Shown: in pieces, positions 1 to 32,000 of the stretch | Numbering within the stretch: the first letter of the stretch is position 1 | Layout of the letters: each line of letters starts with the position of its first letter | NCBI GenBank assembly: GCA_004563595.2 | Contig: CP042461.1 | Span: 1,050,001-1,082,000, forward strand | From: Candidatus Saccharimonadota bacterium | GTDB taxonomy: Bacteria > Patescibacteriota > Gracilibacteria > BD1-5 > UBA6164 | Direction of reading: 5' to 3' | Length of the DNA stretch: 32,000 nt | Position numbers and translations under genes: made by a program | Notes under the pieces: generated by a model | What the model was told of the DNA's origin: nothing | Seen by the model: the letters and a program-made list of their open reading frames with translations, nothing else | Database searches by the model: none

Positions 1-87
1 GCTATCAAAGAAGGTGTTGATAAAGCTGAAGGTGAAGAACTTAAAGCTAAATTAGAAGAAGCTGGTGCTTCTGTTGAATTAAAATAA
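1..87 (+). CDS. rplL: 50S ribosomal protein bL12 (L7/L12), C-terminal end (5' truncated by window edge)
   Basis: Frame 1 reads AIKEGVDKAEGEELKAKLEEAGASVELK then TAA (85..87), the conserved bL12 C-terminus. A hairpin terminator follows. Confidence 0.9.
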   Translation, partial: AIKEGVDKAEGEELKAKLEEAGASVELK

Positions 88-100
88 TAATTCATAAAAT

Positions 101-137
101 AAAAACTGAATATTTAAATATATTCAGTTTTTATTTT
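101..137 (+). terminator. Intrinsic terminator after rplL
   Basis: Stem aaaaactgaatat (101..113) pairs with atattcagttttt (120..132), followed by a T-run. Confidence 0.7.
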
Positions 138-146
138 TATTTATTC

Positions 147-220
147 TCTGAGTTCGCCAAGTGGTAAGGCCGGGGACTCTGAATCCCCTATCATAGGTTC
201 GAATCCTATACTCAGAACCA
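147..220 (+). tRNA. tRNA-Gln (anticodon CUG)
   Basis: 74-nt cloverleaf. Acceptor tctgagt/actcaga. D-arm gccaagtggtaaggc (tRNA-Gln-like). Anticodon stem gggga/tcccc with loop c-t-CTG-a-a. T-arm atagg-ttcgaat-cctat. Discriminator a plus encoded CCA. Confidence 0.85.
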
Positions 221-234
221 TGAAAATAAACAAT

Positions 235-268
235 AAAAAAGAATGTATCAAATGATGCATTCTTTTTT
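235..268. terminator. Bidirectional hairpin terminator (tRNA / GIY-YIG gene)
   Basis: aaaaaagaatgtat...atgcattctttttt: an A-run, a stem with one G:U pair, and a T-run. It lies between convergent transcription units. Confidence 0.6.
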
Positions 269-506
269 ATTTAATCAATTTCAACTTCTTATCCCTAGTC
301 AATTTCTTGATCCTGCACTCTTCTTTTGCAGCTTCTGATTTATCAGCAACTTCAACTGAGTATACAAGTTCAACTGGTCTTCTCACTCTGGTATATTTTG
401 CTGCTTTAGGAGAGTTATTATGTTCATCAACTCTTCTCTCTAATTCTGTAGTGATTCATGTATATAAACTTCCATCATTACATCTCACTATATACACATA
501 CCACAT
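267..506 (-). CDS. GIY-YIG nuclease-domain protein (UPF0213-like)
   Basis: Table-25 translation MWYVYIVRCNDGSLYTGITTELERRVDEHNNSPKAAKYTRVRRPVELVYSVEVADKSEAAKEECRIKKLTRDKKLKLIK*. This is the classic GIY..YTG..R..EH..K..YT layout. The one in-frame TGA falls on the G of YTG. Confidence 0.85.
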
Positions 507-510
507 ATTT

Positions 511-981
511 TTATACTGATAGATTTACAAATTCTGTTGTATCAATTGATAATTCTGCTTTGATTTTATGAGACTCTACTTCTTCTATATGTTGTCCAAG
601 AGTGTTCAGGAATATATCCTTCCCTTCTCCAAATGGAATTACAAGCTTTGCTTCAATATTTTCAAATATTTTTGCAGCATCTTTTGTTCATGTAATGATT
701 AATATATCCACATCTCAAAAGAATGATAAGATCTCTTCTTTTAATTCAAAGCTATCATTTGATATGATAACGATATGTTTTGTGTCCACAACAAAATGAT
801 AAAACAATTTATTTGCATACTCTTTTACCTCAAGTAACATTCATGATTTTTCATACTCTCAAGGATATGAAACATTAAAATCATCGACATTAACATCTCC
901 TGAACTTATATTAAAAGTGATATTTTTTTTATCTGAATTTGTAATATTTAGGTTTCATGCTTTGTTATAAACTTCGATCAT
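511..981 (-). CDS. MBL-fold (UlaG/COG2220-like) protein, short form without an obvious HxHxDH motif
   Basis: 156 codons, ATG 981 to TAA 511. Motifs YPGEYEKSGMLLEV, FFGDVDILIITG and AKLVIPFGEG resemble the C-terminal half of MBL-fold hydrolases. Five in-frame TGA codons. Coordinates are solid; the function is tentative. Confidence 0.6.
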
Positions 982-996
982 AGAAAACTGTTAAAA

Positions 997-1449
997 TTAA
1001 ATAAAATATGTTTTATTTCTTGCTATAATAGCTCATAAATCAAACATAACTTCCACATCTTTTATCTTTTCAATAGGAAACCATTCATATCAAACAAACC
1101 TTTCTTCCTTTTGAACATAAGGTTTTTTCTCTCAATGATACCTCACCAGAAAAAGATATACATCTTTATCTATCACGGGGGTATTTTCTAAGTATCAGGC
1201 TGTAAAAGTATAGTTTAACTTTGTAATAAACTTAATTACTTCAAGGTCTTTTTTCATTAATCAGGCTTCTTCACTAATTTCTCTTACTGCTGTATCTTTT
1301 GCTACTTCTCAATCTTCTATATGTCATTTTGGAATCACATAGATTTCTTTATTTCTTGAGTTTAACCATTTCAGTAAAAGAACCTCGATCTTACCTTCTT
1401 TTTTACGATAGACTATACCACCTGAACTCTTTTCATATATTTTTGCCAT
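997..1449 (-). CDS. NUDIX hydrolase
   Basis: MAKIYEKSSGGIVYRKKEGKIEVLLLKWLNSRNKEIYVIPKGHIEDGEVAKDTAVREISEEAGL... contains a complete Nudix box GX5EX7REUXEEXGU. The first G of the box is encoded by TGA. Confidence 0.85.
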
Positions 1450-2925: not shown

Positions 2926-2961
2926 AAAGAACTTAGAAGTAATTATCTAAGTTCTTTTTTT
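2924..2961. terminator. Bidirectional hairpin terminator
   Basis: agaacttaga (2928..2937) pairs with tctaagttct (2946..2955), flanked by an A-run and a T-run. It overlaps the last codons of rlmE. Confidence 0.6.
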
Positions 2962-3623
2962 CATATACAAATTACGTATTCTTCATGTGATGAATCTCTA
3001 CAGGCCATCGGTTTATACATTGTCATTTTTGTAAATCTTTTTTTCACCTGCTGAGCTAAGTCATTAAAATCTTCTCATTTAAAAACTTTCAGAATCATAT
3101 CCCCTCCTGGCTTTAAAAAGCTATCACTAAACTTACAGATTTCAATATTAAGCTCAACAGAAGCATATTGATCTACATCAAATCTCCCTGTTGTATTTGG
3201 AGCAATATCAGATGTAATAACATCGAATTGATCATCTCATACAATTTCAATCACATTTTTGCTCAGTGTATCATAATCAAATATATCACACACGAGGGTT
3301 TTTACATTTGGATATGAAAAAGGTTTACATTCTTTTAAATCAACTCAAATAATTTGTTTTTCCCTTACTATATTTCTTATAGCTTGTAAAAAACTCCCTG
3401 GAGCACATCATACATCCATTACACTATGATCTGGCTGTATAAGGTCAAATCTTTCCTGAATTTCAAGAAACTTATAAATTGATCTTGCTCTATACCCTGC
3501 CTTTCTTGCTTTTTCGGAAAATTCATCATTTACTACATAGCTTCATCTTTGCACTTTCTTCTTCCTATGAAAACCTGTTTTCATAACTGTTTTTTTATTT
3601 TGAATTCTGTTTTTCTTTGCCAT
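2943..3623 (-). CDS. rlmE: FtsJ/RlmE-type 23S rRNA 2'-O-ribose methyltransferase
   Basis: 226 aa: ...GYRARSIYKFLEIQERFDLIQPDHSVMDVGCAPGSFLQ...VITSDIAPNTTG...LKPGGDMILKVFKGE. SAM-binding and K-D-K-E context typical of RlmE. Confidence 0.8.
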
Positions 3624-3893
3624 AGAGTCTATTTTAAAAGTATCAAAACATATTTTATTAAAAAAAATATTTATTACAAGGGTTAAATGGTCAATTTTTG
3701 CATATTTTTCAGAATTTTTCCAAAAAAATACAAAATGTACAAAATAAAATTACTTTTATTATTACCTTTAAATAGACGATTTAATTATTTTTTAGTATTA
3801 TTTATTATTTTGTTTGACTTTTATTTGATTTAGTTTTTAAAGTAGTTTATAATTAATTTATAAGTCAATATATTAATTTGTAAATAGCTACAT

Positions 3894-4940
3894 ATGACAG
3901 ACTGAAAAAAAATAAATTTGAGTGCTATGATAAGTTCATCAAATAAAAGTGATACCAAAACCCCCCCTACAGAAACTCCTGTAGAAGAAAAAAAACAGGA
4001 AACACCAAATATTTTATCTGAACAACCAGTTTCAGATAAAATAGAAAAACCTGAGCCAGTTACTGAATCAAAAAAAATAGATATTAAAAGTCTGTCTGCT
4101 TCAGTTTCAAATGAGAAAAAAGATGATGAAACTTCTTCTCAAGATACAACTCAGAAAAATATGATAAAACCTGAAAAAGAAGAAGAAAAAACGTGATTAG
4201 TTACTAAGAAAAAGAAAGTAGATATAAAAAATATCTCTCCTTCTATTTCAAAGACAGAAAAAGAAAATATAGTTCCTGTTCAAGGGGCTCCTAAAAAAGA
4301 GGATATAAAAATTATAGAAAATAAAACAGAAATAAAGGAAGACTCAAAAGAAGTTACAAATCAAGACGATTCTAATAAAACTCTCTTAGAAAATAGTGCT
4401 AATAATGAAGAACTTGAAGAAAAAGCTACAACAAGTGAGATATTTAAAAACTATTCATCTGACTTTAATGGCAAAGCTCAAGGAATTATAAAAGAAATCA
4501 AAAAATTAAAAAACTTAAGAAAAACAAATCCAAAGTTTTTAGGTTTTATAATAATCGTAACTGTTATATGAATATCTTTCCTCTTTTATGTAGATCCTAA
4601 AAATCATTCCTATACAAACTATAAAGCAAGCATCTTAAATGTATATAACAAACAAACAAATCCAAATTATCAAACAAATACTCATAGTTGATCTCAACAA
4701 GAAGAAGATTTAGCAAATAATACTCCAAAAATTAATTGGAATGACCTCTCTATTCATGAATGGTGATTTAATCTAAAGATAGAGAGCCAAACATGAACAG
4801 GATGAACCCTTGTATACAAATTTGAATGAATATTATATACTTCAAAAGAAGACCTAGATCAAGCTGTTGAAGCATCTATTACTTTGCAAAAGACAAGAAG
4901 AATAAAATCTGTAATTTCTGAAAATTTTAAAAGGCAATAA
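3894..4940 (+). CDS. Hypothetical membrane-anchored protein (Lys/Glu/Thr-rich N-terminal region, one TM, ~120-aa C-terminal domain)
   Basis: ATG 3894 is in frame with the track ORF at 3918 via a TGA=Gly codon. It reads through the TGA at 4194 to TAA 4938..4940. TM segment FLGFIIIVTVIGISFLFYV. Alternative starts at 3918 and 3927. A long hairpin terminator follows. Confidence 0.6.
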
Positions 4941-5101: not shown

Positions 5102-6325
5102 ATGGATTTAGACGCTGATATACAAAAACTGCCAATTAAAAAAGACTTATGAGATGTCGTTGACTATATTAATGCTCTCTTTAAAAAAGCTATTGATTAC
5201 GGAGCATCAGATATACATGTAGAACCAACTGAAGATTTTCTCCTTATCAGGTTTCGTAAAGATGGTGATTTTATGATTATTGACAAAGTTCATCCTGAAA
5301 ATATCAGTGCTATAGTAACCAGGCTCAAAGTACTATCAAAGATAAAAATTGATGAAAATAAAAAACCTCAAGATGGGAAAATTGTATATTTCTATGAAGC
5401 TGATGACATGAATGTAGATATCCGTCTCTCTACCCTTCCAACAACCTATGGTGAAAAAGTGGTTATGCGTATATTAAAACAAGATGCCTCACTTACCAAT
5501 ATTGAAGCTCTATGACTTATTGATATCAATGTAGAAAAGGTAAGAGAAGCTCTCAAAAGTAATTATTGAATTATGCTCGTAGCATGACCAACTGGGTCAG
5601 GTAAATCTACTACCCTATTTGGTATATTAAAACATTTTAATCCTCTTGCATATAATATATCCACTCTTGAAGATCCGATCGAGTATAATATTGAGTATGT
5701 AAACCAATCCCAAGTAAAACCTGAAATCTGATATACATTTTCAACTGGTCTCAGAAGTTTGGTAAGACAAGATCCTGATATTATAATGGTATGAGAAATC
5801 AGGGATAAAGAAACAGCAACCCTTGCTGTTGAAGCCGCTCTTACATGACATTTAGTTTTATCAACTATCCATACCAACTCCGCAGCAGGAACTGTGCAAA
5901 GACTTATAAATATGTGAGTTGAACCATTTCTTTTAGCATCAGCTATGAAAATGGTTATATCTCAAAGACTTTGAAAGAGGCTATGTCAAAGCTGTAAAAA
6001 AGAACATCCTCTGAAAGATTATGAAATGAAAAAAGTAAAAGACTTTCTTGCTCCAATTGTAGAAAAAGATCAATTAGAAAACCTCGTCTTTTACAAATGA
6101 GAATGATGTGATGTTTGTAGACAGACATGATATAAATGAAGATTATGAATCCATGAAGTCCTGATAGTATGAGATTTTCTTGAACCTCTCATATTAAATA
6201 AAGAGAGTGCAAATGCAATGAGAACTATCGCAATCGAAAATTGAATGATTACTATAGTCCAAGATGCATTATTTAAAGCACTCATGTGAGAAACTACTGT
6301 TGAAGAAGCTCTTAAACTAATATAA
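5102..6325 (+). CDS. pilB: Type IV pilus assembly / type II secretion ATPase (PilB/GspE family, short form)
   Basis: 407 aa. ASDIHVEP. Walker A VAGPTGSGKSTT (its first G is TGA 5585..5587). LEDPIEY, RQDPDIIMVGEIRD and GHLVLSTIHTN. Tetracysteine region CQSC...CDVC. Confidence 0.9.
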
Positions 6326-6347: not shown

Positions 6348-8243
6348 ATGTTTAATATATTCAAGAAAAAGAAAATAAATACTCAGGCTGTAAAGAGTTT
6401 TAATGAAGTTGTGAAAACAATTGATATTTTTATTCGTCTTTCAGAGTGGGAAAAAGCAAGAATGGCTTTGGCTGAGATAAGAAATAAAGAAAAAAAATCT
6501 CTTGCAGATCTTATGATAAAGATTGAGAGTGAAGATAAACTTTTCAGTGAAAAAGAAGTTATCAAACAAAATAAATTTTATAAGAAAAAACTGGTCAGTC
6601 TTGATAAATTAGAAGAGACTTTGATTAAAACTGAAAAAAAATTCCATGATGATATTCAAAATCAAAAATTTAAAATCAGATTTAAGTCTATAAAAACTGA
6701 GATCGAGCTCCTAGCATGAGGGAAAAAACATACAGAAGCAATGAATCTCTTACAGAAATTCCTAGAAGAAAATAAAGAAAAAGATATTGTAATTAAATTT
6801 TTCAATAAAGAAAAGAAGATTCTTTTAAAAAAGCTTGAAAAACACAAAGGACTAGAACAAGAAAAAATCAAAAGAAATGCAAAGTCAGAAGCTATGAATC
6901 TGATATGAGAAAATGTAAACATCGAACCAAAAGAGAAAAAAAAGAAAAAAAGTTCATTTTTTAGTGAGCTTAAAGAAAAAATAAATTTTTATAAAAAAAT
7001 AAAAGAGACTATTAGAAAAAAGAAATTACTCAGTGAAATCAATATCCTCATTGACGAAGATTCAAAAGTGAAAAATGATATCGCAGCAAAAAAATTAGCA
7101 AATATACATAGGTGACTCATCAAGGAAATCACAAATGATCAAATGTTATGATATGAACTCTATGGGAAAATACTCTGAGCAGATAAAATATCATGAGACA
7201 CCTTTTGATTTAATGAAAATACATCAAAATATAACTTCTTCTTATGAGATGCCACTGGTCATGGAATTAGAGCATGATTCATAGTTACACTCCTTAGTAG
7301 ATTCTTTAATAAATATGTCGATAAAAGTAGTTTATCTGAGTTGACTTATGAGATTAACAATGGATTAAAGCAAGATTTAAAAAATAGAAATTTTATCACT
7401 TGAGTATTCTTTGAAATACTCAAAAATAAAATCGGAACCATAAATTTTGTTTGAATGTGACATGAGCCAATGCTTATATTTAGGAAGAAAGAAAATACAA
7501 TTGAAAAAGTAATTCCAGGATGACTCGCAGCTTGAATCAGAATGATTAAAAATAAAGAAGATATTAAAACCAAAGAACTCAATCTAGGTGATGAAGATAT
7601 TCTTATTATCTATAGTGATTGAATGACTGATAGCAAAAATCCTGAAGGTTCTTTCTATTGAATTGATAGATTAAAAGATAGCTTTTTCAACATAGCCTCC
7701 GGTGGTTCTGATATTAAAAATATATATGATTTCCTTATTAATGATATCCAATTATTTAGAGGCTGAAGTAGTTTTGATGATGATGTCAGTATTTTAATGA
7801 TAAAAAGAAACTTCCTCAAAGATATTGTAAGAGAACCTTCTGAATATTTAGATGATCTCTCTAAAAAAGAATGACTCAAAAGAAATGATGTCAAAAAGAT
7901 GGAATGAAAAACCAAAGAAGAAATTAATGTCATACTAGAAAGTATTAAAAAAGAAAAAGAAACAAAGAAAATCATAAAAATTCTTGAAAATCTTTATTTT
8001 ACCTGAGAGATTTTAAAATTAAAGCAAGAAGCTATCCGTTTTATCAAAGCCTGATATATTCATAAAAAAATCAATTATTACCTTAAAAAAGCAATTGATA
8101 ATGAAAAAGGTTATAAGATAGATCAAAAAAATCAAAGAATAGATAGTAAATATACCGTTCTTATGGAACTCTATAAAAAATGAGATTATAAAACAGTTAT
8201 GCAAGAAGTTGAAGATATTATTGCACAAGATTGAAATATATAA
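6348..8243 (+). CDS. SpoIIE/PP2C-family Ser/Thr phosphatase domain protein with long coiled-coil flanks
   Basis: 631 aa with TGA=Gly. Central motifs ISGDTFGF, FFLGDATGHGIRAGFI, FVGMGHEPMLIF, LGDEDILIIYSDGMTDSKNPEG and DDDVSILMIK match the SpoIIE/PPM pattern. The N- and C-terminal regions are K/E-rich heptad-like sequence. It sits 22 nt after pilB and 25 nt before pilC. Confidence 0.8.
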
Positions 8244-8268: not shown

Positions 8269-9483
8269 ATGTTCTGAGGTCGTTTCTATGATAAATACTG
8301 AAATTTTAACAACGATAAGTTCGTTAAGCTTTTAGAGAAAGCCAGAAATGCACAATACAAAAAGCAAAAATCAACAAAAGGTAATATGAATAAAGAAATT
8401 ACCTTATTTGATAGCGCCTCAAAAAAAGAACTTTGGCAAATGATTAACAAACTTTCTATATTTATTAATTCGTGAATTGATGTAAAATGAGCTCTTACCA
8501 TCCTCATAAAACAAACAAAAAACCCATACCTTAAAAGAATTACTATTGAAATGCAGGAAAATATTAATCATGGGATTACTATGAGTGAGACTATGGCTCA
8601 ATATCCAAAAGTATTTGACTGATTAAGTACTGCACTTATCTGAGTATGAGAAAAAACAGGGCAATTATGAAAAATTCTTGCAGAGCTTGATAAGAACCTT
8701 TTAGAGAATATTGAGCTCAAATGAAAAGTAAAATGAGCCATGATCTATCCTGCTGTTCTACTAGTATTAACTCTCTGTATGGTAATCTTTATGATGATTT
8801 TTATTGTACCAAGAATTTCAGAGAGTTTTGAAAAAGCTGGGAGTGAGCTTCCAGGTCTCACTCAGTTTGTAGTAGCTGTTTCAAATTTTTTCATTGAAGA
8901 TTGGTGAAAACTTATCATTTGATTTATTGCAACTATTTCAATATTTAGAATCATCAATTCAACATATCACTGAAAAATGTTCTTTGCTATCATGTATACA
9001 AAGCTCCCTATTTTTTGATATGTAGTGAGGCAATCAAATATAGTATATTTTATTAAATCTTTTACCATTCTTCTTGATTCTTGAGTACTTCTATTAGAAT
9101 CACTGAAAACATCAAGTAAAGTAGTACCAAATCTTGCATATAAAAAAGAGCTTATCAGAATCAAAAATGAAGTTGAAATATGACTTACCATATCAAAATC
9201 TCTCTGATTGAACCTTGATTATGAAGCAAATGTATACTTAAATAATCTCTTTCCTGAAGAATTTGCTTATGTAGTAAGTACTTGAGAAGAAACTTGAAGT
9301 TTGTCAGACTCTCTCAAAAAAGTATGAGCAAACTATAACTGAGAACTAAAAAGATATATCTGAAACCTTTCAAGTCTGATGGAACCAGTTATTATCGTTA
9401 TAGTATGATTTTTAGTTGGTACTATTGTAGTTGCCATTATGCTCCCTTTCTTCGCGATGGGTGAAATTGCAAAAAACTTATAA
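8269..9483 (+). CDS. pilC: Type IV pilus platform protein (PilC/GspF family)
   Basis: 404 aa. Two T2SS-F-like halves (…GITMSETMAQYPKVFDGLSTALIGVGEKTGQL… and …EEFAYVVSTGEETGSL…). Three TM segments. Ends TAATAA. Confidence 0.9.
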
Positions 9484-9484
9484 T

Positions 9485-9720: not shown

Positions 9721-10467
9721 ATGAGAAATACAAAACAAGCATTCACGTTAGTGGAACTTATCGTAGTTATTACTATTTTAGCTATACTTGGTACTATAGC
9801 CTTTATATCTTTACAAGGGTATTCAGCTGATGCTAGAAACTCTAAAAGAGTAAATGACCTTGGGAATCTTGCTGATTCTGTAAACATTAAGTCTACACAA
9901 GGATCATCTCTATTAAGTTTTGTAACTTCTGATACAAACACTACTCTTACTAATGCTAGTGTTGCTGGTACAGGAACTCTTGCTGCTAATTATAGTGCAG
10001 GTTTCCCTAACTATATCGCTCTTGGAGTAAAAGAAGAAGATTTTAAAGATCCAAATGGTCCAGAATATAGAGTTGCTGCAACTACTAATAAAAATGGTCA
10101 ATTTGAATTTGCTTCTTCTATTGAAAATGGTGCAGGACTTGATACTGCTAAAATAATCGGTAACTATAACAATAGAGGTGTAGCTGCTGGTGATACTGCA
10201 ACTATTACTTCTTCTGGTACTCTTTCAGTTACTCTTGCTGATACTGATATCGGTAAGATAGTAAGAGGAGATACTGTTACTGCTGGTGGTACTGCTGCTA
10301 TAGTAGTTACAAAAGTATCATCTGATGGTACAACTCTTACTCTTAACGCTGCTCATGGTGTAGGTACAGGTGTACTATTATCTGCTGCTGAATCAACTAG
10401 TATAATTGCTTCTACAACTGGTGTAACAACTCCAATTGAAGCTGATACTGAAACAGTTCCTTATTAA
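9721..10467 (+). CDS. pilA: Type IV pilin (prepilin with N-terminal methylation/cleavage motif)
   Basis: MRNTKQA-FTLVELIVVITILAILGTIAFISLQGY is the class III signal peptide plus conserved hydrophobic alpha-1 helix with Glu5. Position -1 is Ala rather than Gly. Thr/Gly/Ala-rich globular part. 248 codons with no TGA at all. Confidence 0.9.
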   Translation: MRNTKQAFTLVELIVVITILAILGTIAFISLQGYSADARNSKRVNDLGNLADSVNIKSTQGSSLLSFVTSDTNTTLTNASVAGTGTLAANYSAGFPNYIALGVKEEDFKDPNGPEYRVAATTNKNGQFEFASSIENGAGLDTAKIIGNYNNRGVAAGDTATITSSGTLSVTLADTDIGKIVRGDTVTAGGTAAIVVTKVSSDGTTLTLNAAHGVGTGVLLSAAESTSIIASTTGVTTPIEADTETVPY

Positions 10468-10605: not shown

Positions 10606-11688
10606 CTATGAAATATTTTCCTTAATCAACTTCGGATTGTTTGAGTACTTCAATCATTCCTCTTGAGTAATATATCAACTATTAATAAAATTAATAATAT
10701 CTGTTTCTAATAATTGCATCCCTTCTCTTGATCACGTTTGTATCACTGAAGGAATTTGATGAAGATCATTTTCTCTTATCAAGTTTGAAATCGCTGAATT
10801 TTTTATCAGTATTTCTTTTGCTAACTTTAATCATGTCCCATCTTCTGTCTTCAAAAGTCTTTGAGAAAAAACAGCGACAAGTGAATCTGCAAGTTGTAAT
10901 CTAATCTGATTTTTATCTTCTGCATTAAAACTATCGAGTATACGTGTTACCGTTTGATAAGCAGAACGAGTATGAAGTGTAGAAAATACCAAATGTCATG
11001 TTTCAGCAAGCCTCAGTGCCATCTCCATTTCTTCTTTTGATCTCATCTCTCCAAAAAGAATAACATGAGGGTTTTGTCTCATCGCCCCCATTAGTGCACC
11101 TTCATATGACAGAACATCTCTTCATATTTCTTTGTGCTCAATAATAGACTTTTTATGTTTGTGAATATATTCTATTGGATCTTCAATGGTAATAATATGT
11201 TTACTTGTATTTGCATTGATATGGTCAATCATCGCAGCAAGTGTAGTTGTCTTCCCTGAACCTGTAGGTCCTGTTACCAAGATAAGTCACTGCCCTAATT
11301 TTGTAACATCCTCATATACACTCGTAAGTCATAGATCCTTAGTACTTGGTATTTTTAATGTTAGAAGTCTTAACACCACCATATAATTTCACATTTGAAA
11401 AGAGATATTACACCTTAATCTTCTTTCTCAAAATGAAAAAGAAAAATCTAGATTTCTATCTGTGATAAGCTTTTTATATTGATCTTCTGTGATAAGTGAT
11501 TGCATAAATTCATAGGTGTCTGTAGCTGTTAAAAGCTCAATTCCATCATCTATTTTTACAATATCTCATCCTATTTTTATTGCAGGATAGGTTCCTACTG
11601 TAATATACATATCTGACCCTTCGTTGTCGATCATTACTTGAAGAAGTTGATCTTTGAATATATGATCTGGTTTTAAAATCTCATTCAT
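10606..11688 (-). CDS. pilT: Type IV pilus retraction ATPase (PilT family)
   Basis: 360 aa. GSDMYITVG. Walker [42 protein letters not shown] and [10 protein letters not shown]. Ends with TAG at 10606..10608. Confidence 0.9.
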
Positions 11689-15689: not shown

Positions 15690-15730
15690 ATAACAATAAT
15701 ACCATGACTTCGCCTTGGTGTTATTGTTAT
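15690..15730 (-). terminator. Hairpin at the 3' end of the rhs/orphan/immunity unit
   Basis: ataacaataatacca pairs with tggtgttattgttat (one wobble). On the minus strand it is followed by atcttttgg. It overlaps the stop of the immunity gene. Confidence 0.45.
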
Positions 15731-16077: not shown

Positions 16078-16083
16078 AATAGT

Positions 16084-16887: not shown

Positions 16888-17227
16888 TTAGAAAGAAGAA
16901 TCAAAATATAGAAGATAATATTCATAAAATGAGAGTATACATATATATATTGTTTACTTTAGCATTTATCATAATTTTAGTATAAATAAAAACTAATATA
17001 AAATTAAATATAAATAAAATAATAATATAGAATATTGTATCTTGAATACTAAATGGTATTGGTAAAAATAGGTTTCATAGAAGTCACCCTAAATATGTTT
17101 TATAAACAAATAATATATCATGATTTTTATATCATTTTTCAAATAAAATTGTACTTATTGAAGCAAGTAATGGTATAAAATTTATTAAACCAAAATTAAT
17201 ACTTGTTTCTTTTATATATTTTCACAT
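16874..17227 (-). CDS. Putative immunity protein for the main Rhs toxin (small polytopic membrane protein)
   Basis: 117 aa, ATG 17 nt after the Rhs stop. MGKYIKETSINFGLINFIPLLASISTILF...IFYIIILFIFNFILVFIY...LILGILSSIFGFFFLNITA*. Its stop (16874..16876) lies within the open orphan-cassette frame, which reaches up to 16887. Confidence 0.6.
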
Positions 17228-17243
17228 AAATTATTAGTTAAAA

Positions 17244-20200: not shown

Positions 20201-23200
20201 GATCTATTTGTTTCTCGATCCTATCAAAGAGATCATATTCAAATTTTGTCTGCGTCTCGTTTGGATGAATTTGAGTGATGAGTCTATTATTTATGTCATA
20301 GACATATTTTGTAATGATATTTTGATTGATTCCTGCCTCCGTAGGAATGACTGTTTTTTTAATAATAAATCATGCTTCATTATATTCAAACTTCTGAGTG
20401 GCATTATTTCCATCAGTTATTTCGGTAATATTTGAATTTTTATCATACTGAGTCACTGTTATTTTTTGCCTACTTGCATCTATGTCTGTTGTGATTTTTG
20501 TAGGATTATCTAAAATGTCATATTCATAACTACTGTCTATAGTTTCAGTTCCTGATAATATTATTTTCTCGTTTGTCTTTTTATTCAGTTTATTATATAC
20601 ATATTCACTTACGATTCCCTCTGGAGTGGTAAGCTTTTTAAGCATATTAAAATCATCATAACTGAGATTTGAAATATTTCATTCTGCATCTGTTATACTG
20701 GTAATATTTCACTTATTGTCATAGCTATAGTTTGTAGCTATTTCCTCTCATGAAAGAGACTTAACAGTTTTTAATAAATTTCCATTCTGATACTCAAAAC
20801 TTGTTTCGGATCCATTTCCATCAATCTTTTTTATAAGTTCTCAGAGTGTGTTGTATTCAAACTCTTCTATAACTATTATAGTATTTCCATCATAATCTTG
20901 CACTCAAAGTACTTCTGTTTTTGTGATGTTTCCATTACTATCGAGTTCAAAGTTTGTAACTCTTCCATTTGGAGCAATAGCTTGAGTTATTTTATTAAAG
21001 ACGGGGTGGTAGGTATAGCTATATACTATATCTTCTGCTGAGTCAGCTGACTGAACATCTTGTTTCATTCTCTTTTCTATGAGGTTTGATCTCGTATCAT
21101 AGTCATATGTATATCCATTTCAAAGTGGTAAGATTTCTTTTGATATATAGTTATTATTATCATATTCATAAGTGTATATACTGTCTCAAGTATATTTTTT
21201 CACTATCTTCCCAATGGTATTTCAGTTTGAATCATATGTATAGATGACATTGTTTCCTTCCCTATCTAAGACACTGTTTTGAGTTATTTGATTCTCTGCA
21301 TCAAGAGTATAGGTATATCAAATAGTTCCTTCTCAAAACTTTTGTGTTGCAACTCTATCATCTCCATTATATGTATTTTCTACATAGATGTTATTTTCTG
21401 AATCTATAAGTTGTAGTATATTATGAGACGATTCAAAAGTATCTCACATCGTATATGTGAAACTAATTTCTTTTGAGCTTATAGTATTCGTAGTTGTAAT
21501 AGTTTTTAAATCAAATTCATCTCCATCAGTTTCTCCTGTTCAGAAATATATAAACTCAACGGTATCTCCGTTAAAATCAGTTATATCTTTGATTCTCGAA
21601 TGACCATAATATGTCAGATTATATACTCTCGAGTTTGTATCTATTATTTGCGTTAATGCATTGTTTGCATCATACATAAAACTCATAGTATTTGAGAAAT
21701 TATCTGTGATACTTTGTAGTCTTAGGTTATTATTAAAACTGAGAGTTGTAGTGTTATTTAAGTTCACAGAGTATGTTCCATTTGCTAAGCTGAGGGTTCA
21801 TTTAAGAGTCTCATTTCCTAAAAATCAAGTTCATGATTTTATAAATTGGAATACTCCAAGCTTCCCATTGTGGTAGTTTATATTTCCATCATTGTCTTCA
21901 ACTAAAAATTGATTGTAATTATAATCAAAATTATTTCAGAGGGGTCCGTTATAATAGGATTGATTTTGGTAGTTTATTTTAAACTCAAATGGAAATCAAA
22001 CAGACTTGTATTGCATAAGAGTGTTATCATATACAAATTCTCATGTGTTGAGGTTTACAGGATCTCATGCTGTTGCTTCTGTATTTATTTCTTGGGATAC
22101 TGTGTTATTCGTACTCTGAGTACTTGTTTCTTGGATCGGTCAGATAAAAATCTCTTCTCATGATGGAATGTTATTCTGAACGAAAATATTTCCATTATTT
22201 TCTACATAATTAGAGTATGAAAAATCTGGAGTAAAATTCTCATTTATTACATTCACTTGATAAGTAGTCGTAGCATCTGATAGATTTCCATCTGCATAGA
22301 CTCATCTTACATACCAGTTATATGTTCCTGTAGGAAGTGAAGCTATTTCAAGTTCATAATAACGCTCTACTACTTGTATAGCACTATCATCCTTAAGATA
22401 GAAATTATATGATACGGCATTTTCTATGCTATCCCAAATAAGGTAGGTATATCATTGTTTGTAATCTATGTTTAAAACATCTCATCATGTGCTTACTTGT
22501 TCCACTTGTTGTACTATTTCTTCGATAACCGTAGCATCAACATTTTCGATAGTTTGATCTACTATTACATCTCAGCTAATAGTTGTTGTTGTGATATCTA
22601 TTTCATAGTTTGATGAAATAATCACGATGTCTGCTTGTATATTTCCAGATACTGTTTGCGTAATTACAGCAGGTCAACCACCACCCGTATTACTTGGTGT
22701 ACTCGGAGCTAAGTTCACTGTTTTTACAACTACTTTATTTACTGTAGTATCTCCTATTGTTTGTGTCGTAATACTTTGCGTTACTTCTAGATTTTCTATT
22801 TCAATTACTATTGGTGCTGTATCCTGAGTAATCGTTTTAATAGTAATACTTTCTCAGCTTCATTCTCAATTTGAGGATACTATTGCTCCATGTCAGCTAA
22901 TTCATCAAAGAGATATTTGTTTTGTTCCATCTACATATAATGTATACCCGTTTAAATAAATAACTCCATCATAAACAAAGTCTCCATCTATAGTAATGTT
23001 ACTTTGTAAGTTCATGTCTGATGATATTGGTGTCGATCAATTGATAGTTCTCGCTTGGGTACCATTTACATATAACTGAGTAACATCAAAGCTTCAATTA
23101 TTTTCTATATTTCATTTTGCTGTTATTTTTGAAGTTCATCCTGATGAAGTGAGTATAGTTCAATTATTTACTACATTCCCTTCTACTGTTATATTTGCCC

Positions 23201-26200
23201 CATTTAAAAGATTATATTCTTCTTGATTAGCTATAAGTAAATCTCAGTTTATAGTAATTGGGTCTGGGAGAGTATTTTTATTTAAAGTAAGAGTTGCTAT
23301 ATTTGAATCAGCGATTCCATCATTTACTTTTGCATAAATAACTACTGCTCCATCTTCTAGGTTTGAGAGATCTAAATTGAAATTAAATTCTCAATTCTCC
23401 ATTGGAGTAGATCATGTGGAACTGAAATTTATATAATTTGTTCCATCAAGTGAATAAGAAAAAGTGAGAGTTTGATCTGCATCAAGATCTTTAATTCAAG
23501 CGATTTTGAAATTAATAAATTCTTGGTTTATCAGGGTTATAGAAGTTTGTGTAGAAGTGAGGCTTCCTATAAGTGGAGCCACTTGATCGAGTCAAATTCA
23601 TTGAATACATCATGGGACGTTGATACATTTAGCTTCTGTCCAATCAGAATCGGATAAAATACCATCTCATTTTACTCTCCAGTAAAGATTCGTTCAAGTT
23701 TCTTTGATCGCCGTTGGAAGTAAATATTGAGTTGAGTTATTGACACTTATATCTTCTTCTCATGTGATTGAAAGGATGTAGTCAGAGTATGAATCTATTG
23801 GAGCCCATTTTAGGTAGGTGTTTGTAGAGATGTTTCCGTTTATGTTGTCTAATGCTCCATACAAATATGCTTGCGATACATAACTCAATGAACCATTATT
23901 AATTACATCTCATTTAAAATGAACATAAAATAATTTTGCAGCATTGTTGTTGTATCATCAAATAATACCATTATTCTCTATACCTCCATCTACTGTTAAC
24001 GTATAATAATTATACGTTAATTCTGTTTTCCTTAATATTCCATTTCAGGTAAGTACTACATCTCAGTTTAATATAGTGTTTCACATAATTATTGATGTTC
24101 CATCTAATGTTAATCTGTCAAATGTTGATGTATTTACTATATTTCATTTTGCCAGTACTTTTCTTCATGTGAATCCATTCAAATTATACAACACTTCTGT
24201 ATTCTCTATATTTGTTTCTGTATTATAAATACTTCATACTTTGATTATTTCTCCATCTCAGTTAATATTTGAACTTAGTATTTTTCATACATACGGATAG
24301 TTCAAATATATATCCTTTGCCCCATCTACATACAATGTATAATTCTGTAAATATGTTGTAAATTGAAAATTGATGTCTCATAATAGTTCAACATCTCAGT
24401 TTAAATAAAGATTTGGTTTGAAATTATCAGATGAAGTAATAGTTCTGACTCCATCTGTTTCAGTATCTTGAATATAGGTGTTTCATGACCATCATGAATC
24501 TGATCCATTTGTAACATCTCAATACAAATATGCTTGCGATATATAACTTAATGAACCATTATTCAGTACATCTCATTTAAAATGAATATAAAATAATTTT
24601 GCAGCATTGTTGTTGTATCATCAAATAATACCATTATTCTCTACATTCCCATTCACTGTTAATGTATAATAATTATACGTTGATTCTGTTTTTCTCAATA
24701 TTCCACTTCAGGTAACTACTACATCTCAATTTAAAAGAGTATTTCATGTAATTTTTGATAACCCATCTAATGCTAATATATCAAATGTTGATGTATTAAC
24801 GATATTTCATTTTGCTAGTACTTTTCTTCATGTAAAGCCATTTAAATTAGATCATACTTCTATATTCTCTATATTTGTTTCTACATTGTAAATGCTTCAT
24901 ACTTTGATTGCTTCTCCATCTCAATTTGTATTTGAACTCAATACTTTTCATACATATGGGTAGTTCAAATATATATTCCTCGTTCCATCTACATACAAGG
25001 TATGGTTTTGTAAATATGTTGTAAACTGAAAATCTATGTCTCAGAGTAATTCAACGTCTCAACTTAAATAAAGGTTTGGTTTGAAATTTGGTGATGAGGT
25101 AATAGTTCTAACTCCATCTGTTTCAGTATCTTGAATGTAGGTATTTCACGACCACGATGAATCAACTCAGTTTGTAACATCTCAATATAAATATGCTTGT
25201 GATATATAACTCAATGAACCATTATTCACTACATTTCATTTAAAATGAACATAAAATAACTTTGCAGCATTGTTGTTGTATCATCAAATAATACCATTAT
25301 TCTCTATACCTCCATCTACTGTTAATGTGTAATAGTTGTACGTTGATTCTGTTTTTCTCAATATTCCACTTCAAGTAATTATTACATCTCAATTTAATAT
25401 AGTGTTTCATGTAATAATTGATGCACCATCCAATGTTAATCTATCAAATATTGATGTATTAACAATATTTCATTTTGCTGTTACATCTCTTCATGTAAAT
25501 CAATTCAGATTTAATCATACTTCTGTATTTTCCATGTTTGTTTCTACATTGTAGATACTTCATACTTTGATAGTCTCTCCATCTCAGTTTCCATTTGAAC
25601 TTAGTATTTTTCACACATACGGATAGTTTAAATATATATTCTTCGTTCCATCTACAAACAATGTATAATTTTGTAAATATGTTGTGAATTGAAAATCTAT
25701 ATCTCATAACAGTTCAACATCTCAGTTTAAATAGAGATTTGGTTTGAAATTTTCTGATGAAGTAATGGTTCTGACTCCATTTGTTTCAGTATCTTGAATA
25801 TAGGTGTTTCATAACCATGATGAACCTGATCCATTTGTAACATCTCAATACAAATGTGCCTGACTAACATAACTCAAACTCCCATTATTAATTATATCTC
25901 ACTTGAAATGAACATAAAATAACTTTGCAGCATTGTTGTTGTATCATCAAATAACCCCATTATTCTCTACATCCCCATTCACTGTTAATGTATAATAGTT
26001 GTACGTTGATTCTGTTTTTCTCAATATTCCACTTCAAGTAATTATTACATCTCAATTTAATGTAGTATTTCATGTGATTTTTGATAACCCATTTAATGTT
26101 AATGTATCAAATGTTGATGTATTTACTATATTTCATTTTGATGATACCTTTTTTCATGTGAATCCATTCAAATTGTACAATATTTCTGTATTCTCTATGT

Positions 26201-26933
26201 TTGTCTCCACATTATATATATTTCAAACTTTGATTGATTCTCCATCTCAGTTAGTATTTGATGATAATATTTTTCATACATACGGATAGTTCAAATATAT
26301 ATTCTTTGTCCCATCTACATATAAGGTATGGTTTTGTAAATATGTTGTGAATTGAAAATCTATATCTCATAACAGTTCAACATCTCAGTTTAAATAGAGA
26401 TTTGGTTTGAAATTTTCTGATGAAGTAATGGTTCTGACTCCATTTGTTTCAGTATCTTGAATATAGGTGTTTCATAACCATGATGAACCTGATCCATTTG
26501 TAAGATCTCAATACAAATGTACCTGACTAACATAATTTAAACTCCCATTATTAATTACATCTCACTTGAAATGGACGTAAAATAACTTTGCAGCATTATT
26601 ATTATATCATCATATAATCCCATTATTCTCTACATCCCCATTTACTATTAATGTATAATAATTGTACGTTGATTCTGTTTTCCTCAATATACCATTTCAC
26701 GTAATACTCACCCCTCCCACCGTAGTATTTCATACAATATTAACTAATCAATTCACCTCAACAACATCATCAACATCTGGAACGACTCCTTCCACCCAAG
26801 TTGATACACTATTCCAATTCCCTCAAGCTGACGTTGAATGGATAGTTGGCTCTAATACAGCCCAAGCGCTCGCAAAACTAAACGCAAAAAATAAAGACAT
26901 TATCACAAATATCCTCAAAACAATCCTCCTCAT
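17244..26933 (-). CDS. Giant Sec-dependent Rhs/YD-repeat polymorphic toxin (WapA-like), 3,229 codons
   Basis: ATG 26931..26933 and TAA 17244..17246 share a frame, and all track fragments with YD sequence (17688, 20370, 21540) share it too. No TAA/TAG appeared in the parts translated by hand (26933-25800, 23880-23340, 22450-17244). Signal peptide MRRIVLRIFVIMSLFFAFSFASAWA. 221-aa tandem repeats. FN3/Ig-like modules. DPVNLNTGEF, many YD repeats, and core end ...YYNPQLGRFISRDP...NPVGFVDRMGL plus a ~170-aa CT domain. Confidence 0.85.
17715..17949 (-). repeat. 235-bp direct repeat (Rhs core-end), copy in the main rhs gene
   Basis: See 16567..16801. It encodes IGNTRLYTGREYD...NPVGFVDRMGLAAKAFVKAYDDYLE. 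Confidence 0.85.
23810..26745 (-). repeat. In-frame tandem repeat array, period 663 bp (221 codons), ~4.4 copies, inside rhs
   Basis: The same landmark (antisense ttgtacgtt(g/a)attctgtttt) recurs at 24010, 24673, 25336, 25999 and 26662. 25681..25840 is identical to 26344..26503 over 160 nt. It encodes GN/GD-rich beta-helix-like units (ITGNGILRKTESTYNYYTLxVNGDVENNG...). Confidence 0.9.
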
Positions 26934-27071: not shown

Positions 27072-28103
27072 ATGAAGTATCACCCGAAAATTAAAGCTTT
27101 CAGAAAAAAACTATTATTTTATATATTTTTATCTATAATCTCTACAATTATTTACTTTCCTTACTTCAAATACATGGAATATTTATTTCTGATCATCTGA
27201 TTTATCCTTCTCATTAAATGAGCTGACATGCTCGTTGATGGAGCAAGTTCTATTGCAAAGAAATTTTGAATTTCAGCTCTGGTAATCTGACTTACAATAG
27301 TTGCATTTTGATCATCAGCACCTGAGCTCGTGATTAATCTCATATCATGATATTCATGAAATACAGATTTGGCTGTCTCAAATATAATAGGAAGTAATAT
27401 ATCAAACCTGCTCTTAATCCTATGAATAACTGCTATTCTATATCCTATTAAACTTCCTCAAACAACTATAAAAAGAGAAATACCTTTTTTGATTTTCTCA
27501 GCTATTGTACTCATTCTTATATTACTTGACTGAGTTATATCAAGAGCAGATGCAGGGATATTATCTGTGTTATTTTGAATTTTTCTTTATTATACATTCT
27601 CTATTGCAAAAAGTTCAAAAGATTCAGAAACTGAAAAAATTGAACTTATGAGTAATATAAAAGCAACTCTTTTTGTTCTTTTATGACTTTGTTGACTTGT
27701 TTGATGAGGAAAATTAATAGTTGATAGTGCTGTTTGAATCGCTCAAGCACAATGACTTCCTGAGGCATTTATATGAGTAACTATTGTCGCTATTTGAACT
27801 TCTCTCCCAGAGCTTGCTGTGAGTGTTATAGCTGCATTTAAGAAAAATACTGATATCGCTATTTGAGCTGTAGTATGATCAAATATATTCAATACTCTAT
27901 GGATTCTCTGAGCAACTGGTCTTATGACTCCTCTTCCCTCATATACATGAATACATTTTGATTTATGAATCAACCTGATCGCAAGTATTTACCTATTTCT
28001 CTTTGCGTTTAGTTTTAAAAAACATCATATTGATAAAAAAGAAGGTATTATTTTTATCACATTATATGTATTTTATATTATATTTTTGGTTTCGAAGATA
28101 TAA
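27072..28103 (+). CDS. Ca2+/cation antiporter, CaCA (YrbG-like) family
   Basis: Table-25 + strand reads ...LLIKGADMLVDGASSIAKKFGISALVIGLTIVAFGSSAPELVINLISGYSGNTDLAVSNIIGSNISNLLLILG ... LPEAFIGVTIVAIGTSLPELAVSVIAAFKKNTDIAIGAVVGSNIFNTLWILG. These are the two alpha-repeats GxSxPE of the CaCA family. The longest ORF starts at ATG 27072. The in-frame ATG 27174 (MEYLFLIIGFILLIKGADMLV) fits family N-termini better. Confidence 0.85.
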
Positions 28104-28106
28104 AAA

Positions 28107-28260
28107 TGTGTACTTAGGTTTTAATCCCTCGTACCTCGGGTACTCCCTTTGAAAAGGGAGAAATAAAACATATACATATATATAGTATTATAGAAGGATT
28201 TCTTCCTTTTTCAAAGGAAGTACCGAGATACGAGGGGATGGATTCGTATTCAAGTACACA
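28107..28260. repeat. 154-bp imperfect palindrome made of two inverted ~60-nt repeat units (MITE/REP-like element)
   Basis: The left arm tgtgtacttaggttttaatccctcgtacctcgggtactccctttgaaaagggagaaat is mirrored by the right arm atttcttcctttttcaaaggaagtaccgagatacgaggggatggattcgtattcaagtacaca. Termini are tgtgtactt/aagtacaca. A third unit lies at 12753..12819. Confidence 0.55.
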
Positions 28261-28294
28261 AAAAAAGAATACATTATAATGTATTCTTTTTTTT
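28260..28294. terminator. Bidirectional hairpin terminator (antiporter / ruvX)
   Basis: aaaaaaagaatacat-tataa-tgtattctttttttt. It overlaps the last codons of ruvX. Confidence 0.6.
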
Positions 28295-28672
28295 ATTTAT
28301 ATAACTCTCTAATATAAGAGCTGCTGAGATATCATCTTTTTGTCATTGTTTATCTTTGATACCAATAGTATCCAAAATATTATCTGCTTCAAAACTGGTG
28401 AATCGTTCATCTATTCCTACTATTTTTTTATCTGGAAAAATATTCTTGAGCTTCTCAATAAAGACTTTTGTCTTATCTAATTGCCTCAGTTTTTTTCCAT
28501 ATAAATCATATGGGAGTCCTACTACTAACTCTTCAACTGAGTATTCTTTTACAAGCTTCCTGAGTTCAGAAACAAGCTTTGGTCTCAGGATGATAGCTTT
28601 TGGTAAGACTATCCCTTGAACATAAACTGCTACTCAACATCTTTTATCTCATAGATCTATTCAAAGGTACAT
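28274..28672 (-). CDS. ruvX: Holliday-junction-resolvase-like nuclease YqgF/RuvX
   Basis: 132 aa. MYLGIDLGDKRCGVAV...VVGLPYDLYGK...IDERFTS is the YqgF signature. Several of its G positions are TGA. Confidence 0.85.
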
Positions 28673-28675
28673 ATT

Positions 28676-29131
28676 TTATGAATTAGATGAGCTAAGGATA
28701 ATTTTCATTTTTGCCATAGAATCTTTTCCAAGATTAATATACACATCTGATTCTCATATTTTTTTAATGTGTCCTGCAGGTAAATCAATATGTTTTTTTG
28801 TAAGCTCTATATTAAATTTCTTTTTAATTTCTCCGATAATATCTTTTTCTCAAATTCATCCGAAAACCTTTCCATTTGCTCATGTTTTTAAAGCAAATGC
28901 TAACTCTTTATGGTTGAGTATTTCTGATAGGTTATGTTTATTTTCTATAAGTTCTCTTCTATGACTATCTTTCTTTTTTAATCTATCCTTATATTTCCTT
29001 TCCTCTGCTGCAGTAAGTTCTACTGCAAATTTCTTTGGAAGTAAGAAATTTTGAGCATATCATGACTTTACTTCTTTTATTTCTCCTTCTTTTCAGACAT
29101 TAATTACGTGTTTTAAAAAAAGTACTTTCAT
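28676..29131 (-). CDS. rplI: 50S ribosomal protein bL9
   Basis: 151 aa. [40 protein letters not shown] matches the conserved bL9 N-domain. Its stop lies 3 nt before the ruvX start. Confidence 0.9.
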
Positions 29132-29147
29132 ATTTTTTTATTAAAAA

Positions 29148-30257
29148 TTATTTTTCTTCTTCTACTTTATTTTCTTCTTTTATTTCTTCTTCTTTCACTT
29201 CTATATCTTCAATTGAAATTCTATATCATGTCAGATTTGAAGCAAGATTTACATTGAGACCATTTTTCCCAACTGCTTTTGCTCTTTCTGTAGGAAGTAT
29301 AAAGACTGTTGCATGCTCTTGTTCTTCATTAATTTCAACTTTTAATACTTGAGCTGGAGAAAGAGACCTTTTAATAATATCATGAATATCTCCACTATTT
29401 GGAATAATATCTATTTTTTCTCATCCAAGCTCTTCCATTACTCACTTTACTCTGATACCTTTTTGACCAATCAAGGTTCCTACTGGATCAATTTCTTCAT
29501 AATTTGATGATACAAGAAGTTTTGTTTTCACCCCTGGTTGACGAACAACATTATCGATAGAAATAATACCTTCTCAAATTTCCGGTACAAATTCAGCAAA
29601 TATAGCAGGAACACTTTCTGCTCTTTTTCTACTCAAAATAACCTTTGGTGATCACGTTTCACTTTTTGATACTTCAGCAACATACAAGAAAAATCTTGCT
29701 CATGCAACATATTCATCTCTTGAAACTTGTTCTGATTTTGGAAGTACTACTTGGTTTCCATTATAATCGAATATAATTTTTCATCATTCTACAATTTCTA
29801 CTTTCATATTAATAACTTGTCCTTCTTTTCATACAAAAAGATCATATATTTTTTCTTTTTCAGTATCCCCTATTTTTTGAATAATCACTTGTCTTGCAGC
29901 CTGAGAAGCGATACGTCAAAAAGCTTCACTATTATCACCCTTCATAACCTCATCAGTTACGTCTATTTCTATAATATCTCATTCTTTAAAACCTTCGGCA
30001 TCATCTCATAGTTCTTCAAAACTAATCTCAAGTGAAGAATTTGTTACCTCTTTTACAATTGTTTTTTCAACACTAATTTCAATGTCTCCTTTTTCAATGT
30101 TCAATTTTACATTTACTTCTTCATCTCTATTTCAATAATCTTTTTTATATGCAGTTCTAATCGCTGCTTCAATAATTTCTACTAACTTTTCTTTTGGAAT
30201 ATTTTTTTCGGCTGAAATCATGTTGATAGCTGATTCTATTTGTTTTAAGTCTAACAT
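29148..30257 (-). CDS. nusA: Transcription termination/antitermination factor NusA
   Basis: 369 aa. MLDLKQIESAINMISAEKNIPKEKLVEIIEAAIRTAYKKDYG (N-terminal domain). An S1-like region. KH regions ...RQPGVKTKLLV...[29 protein letters not shown]... An acidic tail. Confidence 0.9.
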
Positions 30258-30296
30258 AAATTATGTATTAATTATAAATTCTTTCTTATTTCTAAA

Positions 30297-30335
30297 AGAA
30301 AACGAGAATTCGCTTTCGCAAATCCTCGTTTTTAA
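30297..30335 (-). terminator. Intrinsic terminator after ftsZ (minus-strand specific)
   Basis: On the minus strand acgaggatttgc-gaaa-gcgaattctcgt pairs fully if two G:U wobbles are allowed, followed by tttctttt. Confidence 0.6.
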
Positions 30336-30396
30336 TTTTTAAAAACAGTACTCTTTTATAGTATGATATTTTTTGAAAAAATCAAATTTTTATAAA

Positions 30397-31578
30397 TTAC
30401 ATTTTTTTTCTTAAAAATGATGGTACATCTAAGTCATCCTTTGGTGCTGTTGCTTGAGAAGCAGGAATAACTCTTGAGTCAGCAACTGATCTTCTTCCAA
30501 ATGCATTCCCTTTTGGTGTTTCAATTTTTGCTTCTGCAAATTGAGTATTTGATGTTTCGTCAAACCCAGTAGCAACAACTGTAATTTTTAATTCACCATT
30601 ATATTCTTCATTAATAGTAGCACCAAAGATAATATTTGCATCACTATCAACTGATTCAGTAATGATTCTTGCAGCTTCATCAACTTCAAACATACTTAAG
30701 TCAGTTCACCCTGTAATATTGAATAAGAGTCCTTTTGCTCCTGCAATTGATAGTTCTAAAAGTGGACTATCAATTGCTGATCTAGAAGCTTCTACTGCTC
30801 TGTTTTCACCAGAACCATATCCAATACCCATTAATGCTGAACCTGCATTTTTCATAACTGATCTTACATCGGCAAAATCGACATTAATAAGACCTGGTTG
30901 TGTTATAAGATCTGATATTCCTTGTACTCACTGATTTAATACTTCATCAACAATTGAGAAAGCATCAAGTAAAGGTGTTTTTTTATCAATAATAGTAAGA
31001 ATTTTATCATTAGGGATTGTGATAAGTGTATCTACTTTTTCTTTCAAAGCTGTAAATCCATCAATAGATTTTGACATCCTATTTTGTCCTTCAAATGCAA
31101 ATGGTTTTGTAACCACTCATACTGTAAGAGATCCCACTTCTTTTGCTATTTCTGCAACAACTGGAGCAGCTCATGTACCTGTTCCACCTCATAAACCACA
31201 AGTAATAAAAATCATGTCTGCTCATTCTAGAACAGCTTTAATTTCCTCTCTTGATTCTTCAGCAGCTTTTTTCCCAACATCTGGATCTGATCCTGCTCAT
31301 AAACCTGAAGTAATTATTTTTCAGATATTTAATTTTGTTGGAGCAAGAGAACTAAATAATGCTTGAGCATCAGTGTTAATAGAAATGAATTCTACTCACG
31401 CTAAACCTCATTCGATCATTCTATTCACTGCATTTTGTCATCCACCCCCTACTCATACAACTTTTATTTTTGCTACTGGTGAAATTGAATTTCAAATATT
31501 CACTTCTTCTGGACCCGTTGGAGCTACAATACTTCCTCCTGAAAGTAAGCTTTTTAATTTATCTTCTCTTTTTGTCAT
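30397..31578 (-). CDS. ftsZ: Cell division GTPase FtsZ
   Basis: 393 aa. KVVGVGGGGQNAVNRM. Tubulin signature [49 protein letters not shown], where that G is TGA 30928..30930. C-terminal [13 protein letters not shown] peptide. The standard code breaks it into 3 or more pieces. Confidence 0.95.
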
Positions 31579-31625
31579 TTTTTTTATTATTAGAAAATTA
31601 AATATATGATTTTAAAATCTGGTAA

Positions 31626-32000
31626 CTATGGTAAGAGTTTTTTAAATGTTCTTATTATAGAATCAAAGAATCAGGATACATTCAAAGAAAAAACATTTGA
31701 AGAAACCGAATATCTATTTGATAGTATCATAGTTCATATCACTGCTGCAAATACTGGATCACTTATTGATGCATCTGCCAAATCATCTTTTGATGCTGGG
31801 AGTCATATGAATACTGGTAACTTTAAGTTCTTCTTTCATAACTCTATAAATCACTTCATTTTTACTCATCCTCATACACAAACTGCTCATTCTGGTAACA
31901 TCCCATCTTTTCAAACTTTTTTTAATTCTTGTCTCACAAAGTAAAATATTTCTTCATACCTTGCAGTAACAATTTGAGAAAGGTAAAGTAAAGATAACTT
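31626..32000 (-). CDS. ftsA: Cell division protein FtsA, C-terminal part (5' end beyond window)
   Basis: In frame to the window edge. ...IVTARYEEIFYFVRQELKKVGKDGMLPEGAVCVGGGVKMKGFIELGKKNLKLPVFIGLP...DPVFAAVIGTMIL... with TAG at 31626..31628. It lies directly upstream of ftsZ. Confidence 0.85.

Follow-up and report, generated by a model that had tools for sequence, protein, structure and literature searches.

That UGA can encode glycine (Gly) has been known since 2013 in SR1 and the Gracilibacteria. A different reassignment of the same codon, to tryptophan (Trp; NCBI translation table 4), is found in the Mycoplasmatales and in several insect endosymbionts, Hodgkinia, Zinderia, Nasuia and Stammera among others. 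Here, we examine a stretch of 32,000 nucleotides (hereafter the window) of contig CP042461.1 (assembly GCA_004563595.2, positions 1,050,001–1,082,000, forward strand), which is almost certainly ordinary chromosomal sequence from a Gracilibacterium of the BD1-5 group, Candidatus Gracilibacteria bacterium 28_42_T64, decoded by NCBI translation table 25, with UGA read as Gly and with UAA and UAG as the only stop codons. This reading is correct but not new: both the reassignment and the genome itself are already published (2019, with gene calls made under code 25) and the proteins are correctly annotated at NCBI.

The closed 1.343-Mb Gracilibacteria genome described by Sieber et al. (2019) has a guanine plus cytosine (GC) content of 28.87% and 33 transfer RNAs (tRNAs); gene prediction had to treat UGA as a sense codon and relied on code 25, and prfA was present whilst prfB was not detected (PMC6851277). 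In the clade as a whole, a tRNA-Gly whose anticodon is UCA and loss of release factor 2 (RF2) are regarded as hallmarks (PMC8629427; gTranslate preprint). Direct evidence at the protein level comes from proteomic analysis of another BD1-5 bacterium, in which 97 peptides were specific for UGA as Gly, three for UGA as Trp and none for UGA as a stop (Hanke et al.; PMC4032931). The window, at 28.6% GC, resembles other users of table 25, the SR1/Gracilibacteria code, in its abundant in-frame TGA codons at conserved glycines, its exclusive use of TAA and TAG as stops, its low GC content and its affiliation to BD1-5 within the candidate phyla radiation (CPR), and we find no difference in kind.

Under the standard bacterial code (table 11), the window contains 21 stop-to-stop open reading frames (ORFs) of at least 100 amino acids, the longest of 290. 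With TGA as a sense codon the longest stop-to-stop ORF reaches 3233 amino acids (3229 from start to stop), whereas in control translations freeing TAG or TAA gives maxima of only 290 and 335. From the base composition (about 0.068 stops per codon), the chance that a frame of 3233 codons contains neither TAA nor TAG is calculated as ~1e-99. Coverage of the window by start-to-stop ORFs of at least 100 amino acids rises from 12.4% under table 11 to 91.9%, in keeping with the warning, given in a first-pass annotation made from the sequence alone, that a table-11 pipeline would lose most of the biology here. Gene calling under table 4 produces a map identical to that of table 25. The 25 genes that result lie back to back and, as the same annotation had stated, all end in TAA (22) or TAG (3) and none in TGA; 16 of 16 genes in the flanking sequence likewise end in TAA or TAG. 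In-frame TGA occurs 402 times in these genes (4.07% of 9884 codons), against 329 GGN codons, and so accounts for 55% of all Gly codons (TGA plus GGN). GGN alone would supply 3.3% of codons; together with TGA the figure is 7.4%, a normal glycine content. The annotation's further statement that every housekeeping gene is cut at TGA is true of most genes but not of the type IV pilin-like gene or of a gene for a secreted protein, neither of which contains the codon.

Several lines of evidence identify the amino acid. When TGA was masked as X, strong full-length family matches were obtained for FtsZ, T2SSE (PilB and PilT), T2SSF, SpoIIE, M28, OLD, Na_Ca_ex, NusA, FtsJ, L9, RuvX, Nudix and GIY-YIG. 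Comparison with solved structures of homologues from organisms using the standard code places Gly opposite 11 of 12 TGA codons in Bacillus subtilis FtsZ, opposite 11 of the 17 in PilB when Vibrio GspE is used and 13 of 17 with Thermus PilF, and opposite six of 12 in Thermotoga maritima NusA; Trp is opposite none in any of these structures. Orthologues lacking in-frame TGA give the same picture. Across 29 such FtsZ proteins, 287 of the 342 residues opposite the window's TGA codons are Gly (84%, against a background of 11%) and none is Trp; 12 of the 13 FtsZ TGA codons have aligned residues in this set, and at ten of these positions at least 83% of the orthologues carry Gly. For FtsA (56 orthologues) the Gly fraction is 64%, against a background of 6%, and Trp appears once in 1281 residues (0.08%).

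Substitution of TGA by each of seven residues, scored against Pfam with bits summed over FtsZ and PilB only, ranked Gly first (677.8), followed by serine (623.7), alanine (622.3), cysteine (Cys; 611.3), arginine (Arg; 601.1), Trp (584.5) and leucine (579.3), with the X-masked sequences at 611.0. Gly thus exceeds the next-best residue by 54 bits and Trp by 93. Finally, seven related genomes have 56 TGA codons in their FtsZ genes, and for 54 of these the window has TGA or GGN at the aligned position; between relatives TGA exchanges with GGN and never with TGG; TGA therefore behaves as a synonymous Gly codon. Taken together, structures, orthologues and profile scores bear out the initial proposal that TGA here means Gly, and not Trp or selenocysteine (Sec). 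In the window, UGA is a frequent sense codon for Gly that occupies conserved glycines and never serves as a terminator.

The motifs from which the reassignment was first deduced are all present. The Walker A motif of PilB reads VA-X-PTGSGKST (X being TGA, on the forward strand at 5585–5587), and the TCA at 30928–30930 of the forward strand is a TGA of ftsZ on the reverse strand; both positions had been given correctly. FtsZ also carries GL-X-GGTGT-X-AAP (TGA at 31189–31191 and 31171–31173), the OLD-family protein has II-X-ANNA-X-KS in its Walker A motif and the GIY-YIG protein has LYT-X-IT, all as described. The Nudix box needed a small amendment: PK-X-HIED is present as reported, but the second Gly of what had been written as PK[TGA]HIEDGE is itself a TGA (1309–1311), and the motif is accordingly PK-X-HIED-X-E.

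A number of observations weigh against the assignment of UGA to Gly, or at least fall short of it. Some TGA codons stand in columns that are not Gly, such as the X of QRL-X-K in PilB, which lies opposite valine, and position 57 of FtsZ, which lies opposite alanine, serine or histidine, although this is expected for variable positions. No tRNA(UCA) gene is present in the window or in the 10 kb on either side (~52 kb in all), where the only tRNAs are Gln(CTG), Glu(CTC), Leu(TAG), Tyr(GTA) and Thr(TGT). A metagenome scan for the Gly-type tRNA(UCA) pattern returned three tRNA(UCA) genes among the at least 120 stretches listed, none of them from this organism, and the absence of RF2 from this genome is as reported in the published description (PMC6851277). 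Nor did tRNA scans of 32 related loci find a tRNA(UCA). One match in the metagenome scan was a textbook Gly-type tRNA(UCA) on an unrelated contig of 32% GC (L179). Glycine-type acceptor stems (GCGGG...CGCU) were also seen in tRNA(UCA) genes on two GC-rich metagenome contigs, L144 (PJEL010153803.1, 53% GC) and L185 (Ga0209488_10042658, 62% GC); a code in which UGA specifies Gly is not expected there, and the two could be suppressor or mobile-element tRNAs.

By extension from the clade, the decoder of UGA in this organism would be a tRNA that combines the anticodon UCA with the glycine identity elements G1:C72, C2:G71, G3:C70 and U73 and is charged by glycyl-tRNA synthetase. RF2, which otherwise terminates translation at UGA, would have been lost, leaving release factor 1 to serve UAA and UAG. 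Strong pressure towards adenine and thymine (AT), reflected in the low GC content, may then have favoured changes from GGA to TGA.

Use of the codon is far from uniform. In a comparison that covers only the ~52 kb made up of the window and its flanks (including L085, 10420–11548, and L083, 3232–3699), TGA accounts for none of the Gly codons in the pilin gene (0/25), L7/L12 (0/14) and L10 (0/14), for a single one in L11 (1/14) and for a minority in FtsZ (13/45), but for 79–84% of those in MiaA, OLD (27/34) and the Na+/Ca2+ exchanger and for about 80% in the DUF218 gene. Fisher's exact test of this unevenness gives p = 5e-18. GGT is the preferred codon in the low-TGA genes (pilin, L7/L12, L10, L11 and the secreted-protein gene), and in the closest relative (L003), which has the same GC content, only two of 44 FtsZ Gly codons are TGA. 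UGA is thus the commonest Gly codon overall, at about 80% of Gly codons in genes of low expression, yet is nearly excluded from presumably highly expressed genes, and we lean slightly towards the view that its decoding is slow or error-prone and under translational selection, with the codon possibly serving to tune expression. Expression-linked avoidance of TGA in Gracilibacteria was not reported in the literature that we searched. Two further ORFs, just past the right end of the window (L083, 701–1336 and 1421–2167; 211 and 248 amino acids), also lack TGA and show a preference for GGC that is unusual in this genome; they may be of foreign origin or wrongly called.

The same avoidance could be taken to mean that UGA is a dual or ambiguous codon, decoded mostly as Gly but inefficiently or according to context, with some termination or with Trp/Gly ambiguity arising from wobble at U34, and hence costly to use. 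The potential for a U34 tRNA to read both UGA and UGG has been noted (PMC8629427), and the contrast between the presumably highly expressed genes and those such as MiaA is what such a cost would produce. No gene in the window requires TGA as a terminator, however, codon bias alone (with GGT optimal) explains the avoidance, and the peptides of Hanke et al. are overwhelmingly of the Gly-specific kind. We regard ambiguous decoding as very unlikely.

Less probable again, to the point of being scarcely credible, is the translation of TGA as Trp under table 4. The ORFs that it opens are the very ones opened by table 25, and the JGI/IMG, ENA and Logan collections hold this FtsZ with each of its 13 TGA codons translated as Trp (P0003). 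Everything that distinguishes one amino acid from another points the other way: the complete lack of Trp opposite TGA in the FtsZ, PilB and NusA structures, its near-total absence from the FtsZ and FtsA orthologue columns, the failure of TGA to exchange with TGG between relatives, and a profile score for Trp that falls not only well short of Gly but below that of the masked sequences. The window does resemble the table-4 genomes in having the same codon reassigned in an AT-rich, reduced genome with the probable loss of RF2, and in its identical ORF map; it is the amino acid that differs, and a Prodigal-style fallback to table 4 will therefore introduce Gly-to-Trp errors.

That TGA is still a stop, the genes being pseudogenes or fragments or else relying on Sec insertion or programmed readthrough, can be set aside as the least probable proposal of all: TGA is indeed a stop or Sec codon in the standard code, and ARAGORN labels any tRNA(UCA) 'SeC', but in-frame TGA codons are frequent, with as many as 163 in one gene, a stop would break the essential genes for FtsZ, FtsA, NusA and L9, the frames continue with their conservation through every TGA and match Pfam and PDB entries strongly over their full length, and TGA aligns with Gly rather than with Cys or Sec, the Cys substitution scoring 66 bits below Gly. 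Sec recoding shares with this system a sense UGA and a tRNA with anticodon UCA (here presumed from the clade), but Sec is rare, dependent on a selenocysteine insertion sequence (SECIS) element and aligned with Cys or Sec, whereas UGA makes up 4% of the codons here.

In the sister lineage Absconditabacteria, CGA and CGG encode Trp in addition to the reassignment of UGA to Gly, and CGG may do so in some Gracilibacteria (Shulgina and Eddy 2021; PMC8629427). The window shares with that lineage the same change at UGA and the great rarity of CGN codons: CGN other than CGT is almost unused, with two CGA codons (RuvX codon 90 and codon ~2253 of the giant RHS/YD-repeat gene, counted from the start at 26900), one CGG (codon 228 of the M28 peptidase gene) and no CGC. 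Unlike in Absconditabacteria, CGA here aligns with conserved Arg: in the DER motif of RuvX, at position 247 of FtsA (45 of 56 orthologues have Arg there) and in the RIN-R and TWF-R motifs of MiaA. As judged from these alignments, recoding of CGA to Trp of the Absconditabacteria type appears not to occur here.

The value of recognising the code is mainly practical. Table 11 destroys nearly all of the genes, whilst the fallback to table 4 silently places Trp at each recoded Gly, and any later reading of the window, that of the giant RHS gene included, must use table 25. Public gene calls already show the problem. Those containing the Trp-substituted FtsZ (P0003) must for that reason have been made with table 4, and the same collection will consequently carry Gly-to-Trp mistranslations of this genome's proteins. 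The public assembly gene calls also omit the Na+/Ca2+ exchanger gene (27072–28103, forward strand) and have two antisense ORFs in its place, at 27161–27514 and 27590–27973 on the reverse strand.

Translated with Gly, its FtsZ is identical to QFR39556.1 and its GIY-YIG protein to QFR39534.1, both from Candidatus Gracilibacteria bacterium 28_42_T64, and these exact matches to NCBI proteins place the window in the BD1-5 Gracilibacteria, and so within Gracilibacteria/Absconditabacteria (class JAEDAM01 in GTDB), the type of CPR lineage that the first-pass annotation had predicted. The window is also identical to JGI contig Ga0239576_1000037 across the 11.6 kb compared and to NODE_17 of ENA ERZ510998 across its first 20.5 kb. 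Among the species representatives of GTDB, the closest is a metagenome-assembled genome of uncultured Ca. Gracilibacteria, whose FtsZ is 85% identical. A phage origin was rejected, with no phage match in 28000–32000. The principal features are listed below; opposite-strand ORFs such as 118–522 and 30362–31615 on the forward strand and 3830–4450 on the reverse strand were discarded as AT-rich antisense frames lacking family matches.

Table 1. Features of the window, with the number of in-frame TGA codons in each gene (coordinates count from the first nucleotide of the window)
Feature	Coordinates	Strand	Remarks
tRNA-Gln(CTG)	147–220	+	Sole tRNA of the window; does not decode UGA
GIY-YIG nuclease gene	267–506	-	79 amino acids; 1 TGA (456–458, in LYT-X-IT)
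Nudix hydrolase gene	997–1449	-	7 TGA; both invariant Nudix-box Gly are TGA (1324–1326, 1261–1263)
RlmE/FtsJ methyltransferase gene	2943–3623	-	6 TGA
PilB/GspE-type ATPase gene	5102–6325	+	17 TGA, including Walker A Gly at 5585–5587
SpoIIE/PP2C phosphatase-domain protein gene	6348–8243	+	23 TGA
PilC (T2SSF) gene	8269–9483	+	23 TGA
Type IV pilin-like gene (N_methyl)	9721–10467	+	248 amino acids; 0 TGA against 25 GGN (18 GGT); intact under table 11
PilT-type ATPase gene	10606–11688	-	11 TGA
Gene for secreted/anchored protein, family not assigned	11799–12659	-	0 TGA against 11 GGN; intact under table 11
M28 peptidase gene	12847–13845	-	12 TGA; carries the sole CGG codon of the window
OLD-family ATPase/TOPRIM nuclease gene (AAA_15 + OLD-like_TOPRIM)	13926–15563	-	27 TGA; Walker A Gly at 15471–15473 and 15456–15458
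Giant RHS/YD-repeat protein gene	17244–26900	-	3218 amino acids; 163 TGA; the '9.7-kb toxin gene' of the first-pass annotation
Na+/Ca2+ exchanger-family gene (Na_Ca_ex)	27072–28103	+	23 TGA; Pfam 168 bits
RuvX/YqgF gene	28274–28672	-	4 TGA; CGA on Arg of DER motif
Ribosomal protein L9 gene	28676–29131	-	6 TGA
NusA gene	29148–30257	-	13 TGA
FtsZ gene	30397–31578	-	13 TGA
FtsA gene, C-terminal 124 codons; extends past the window end	31626–32000	-	9 TGA

The reverse-strand region from 15727 to 26900 looks like an RHS toxin array. Read from the giant gene onwards, it comprises the 3218 amino acid RHS/YD protein, which carries a signal peptide and, towards its N terminus, some five tandem repeats of roughly 190 amino acids each, a membrane ORF of 117 amino acids (16874–17227), an orphan RHS-core/toxin tip (16084–16887) and a second membrane ORF of 116 amino acids (15727–16077). 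The orphan tip repeats the core motif of the giant gene, LKLYYNRARYYNPQLGRFISRDPIDISDDVNLYAYVG, and gave no match in Pfam. Both membrane ORFs may encode immunity proteins, and the OLD-family gene that adjoins the array is a candidate defence gene, with more TGA per Gly codon (27 of 34) than any other gene in the window. The ENA and JGI assemblies differ within this region: NODE_17 departs from the window at 26331, in the N-terminal tandem repeats of the giant gene (L083 versus L084), and the gene is 221 amino acids (663 bp) shorter in the ENA assembly than in the JGI contig, a difference that looks like a tandem-repeat unit collapsed in one of the two assemblies.

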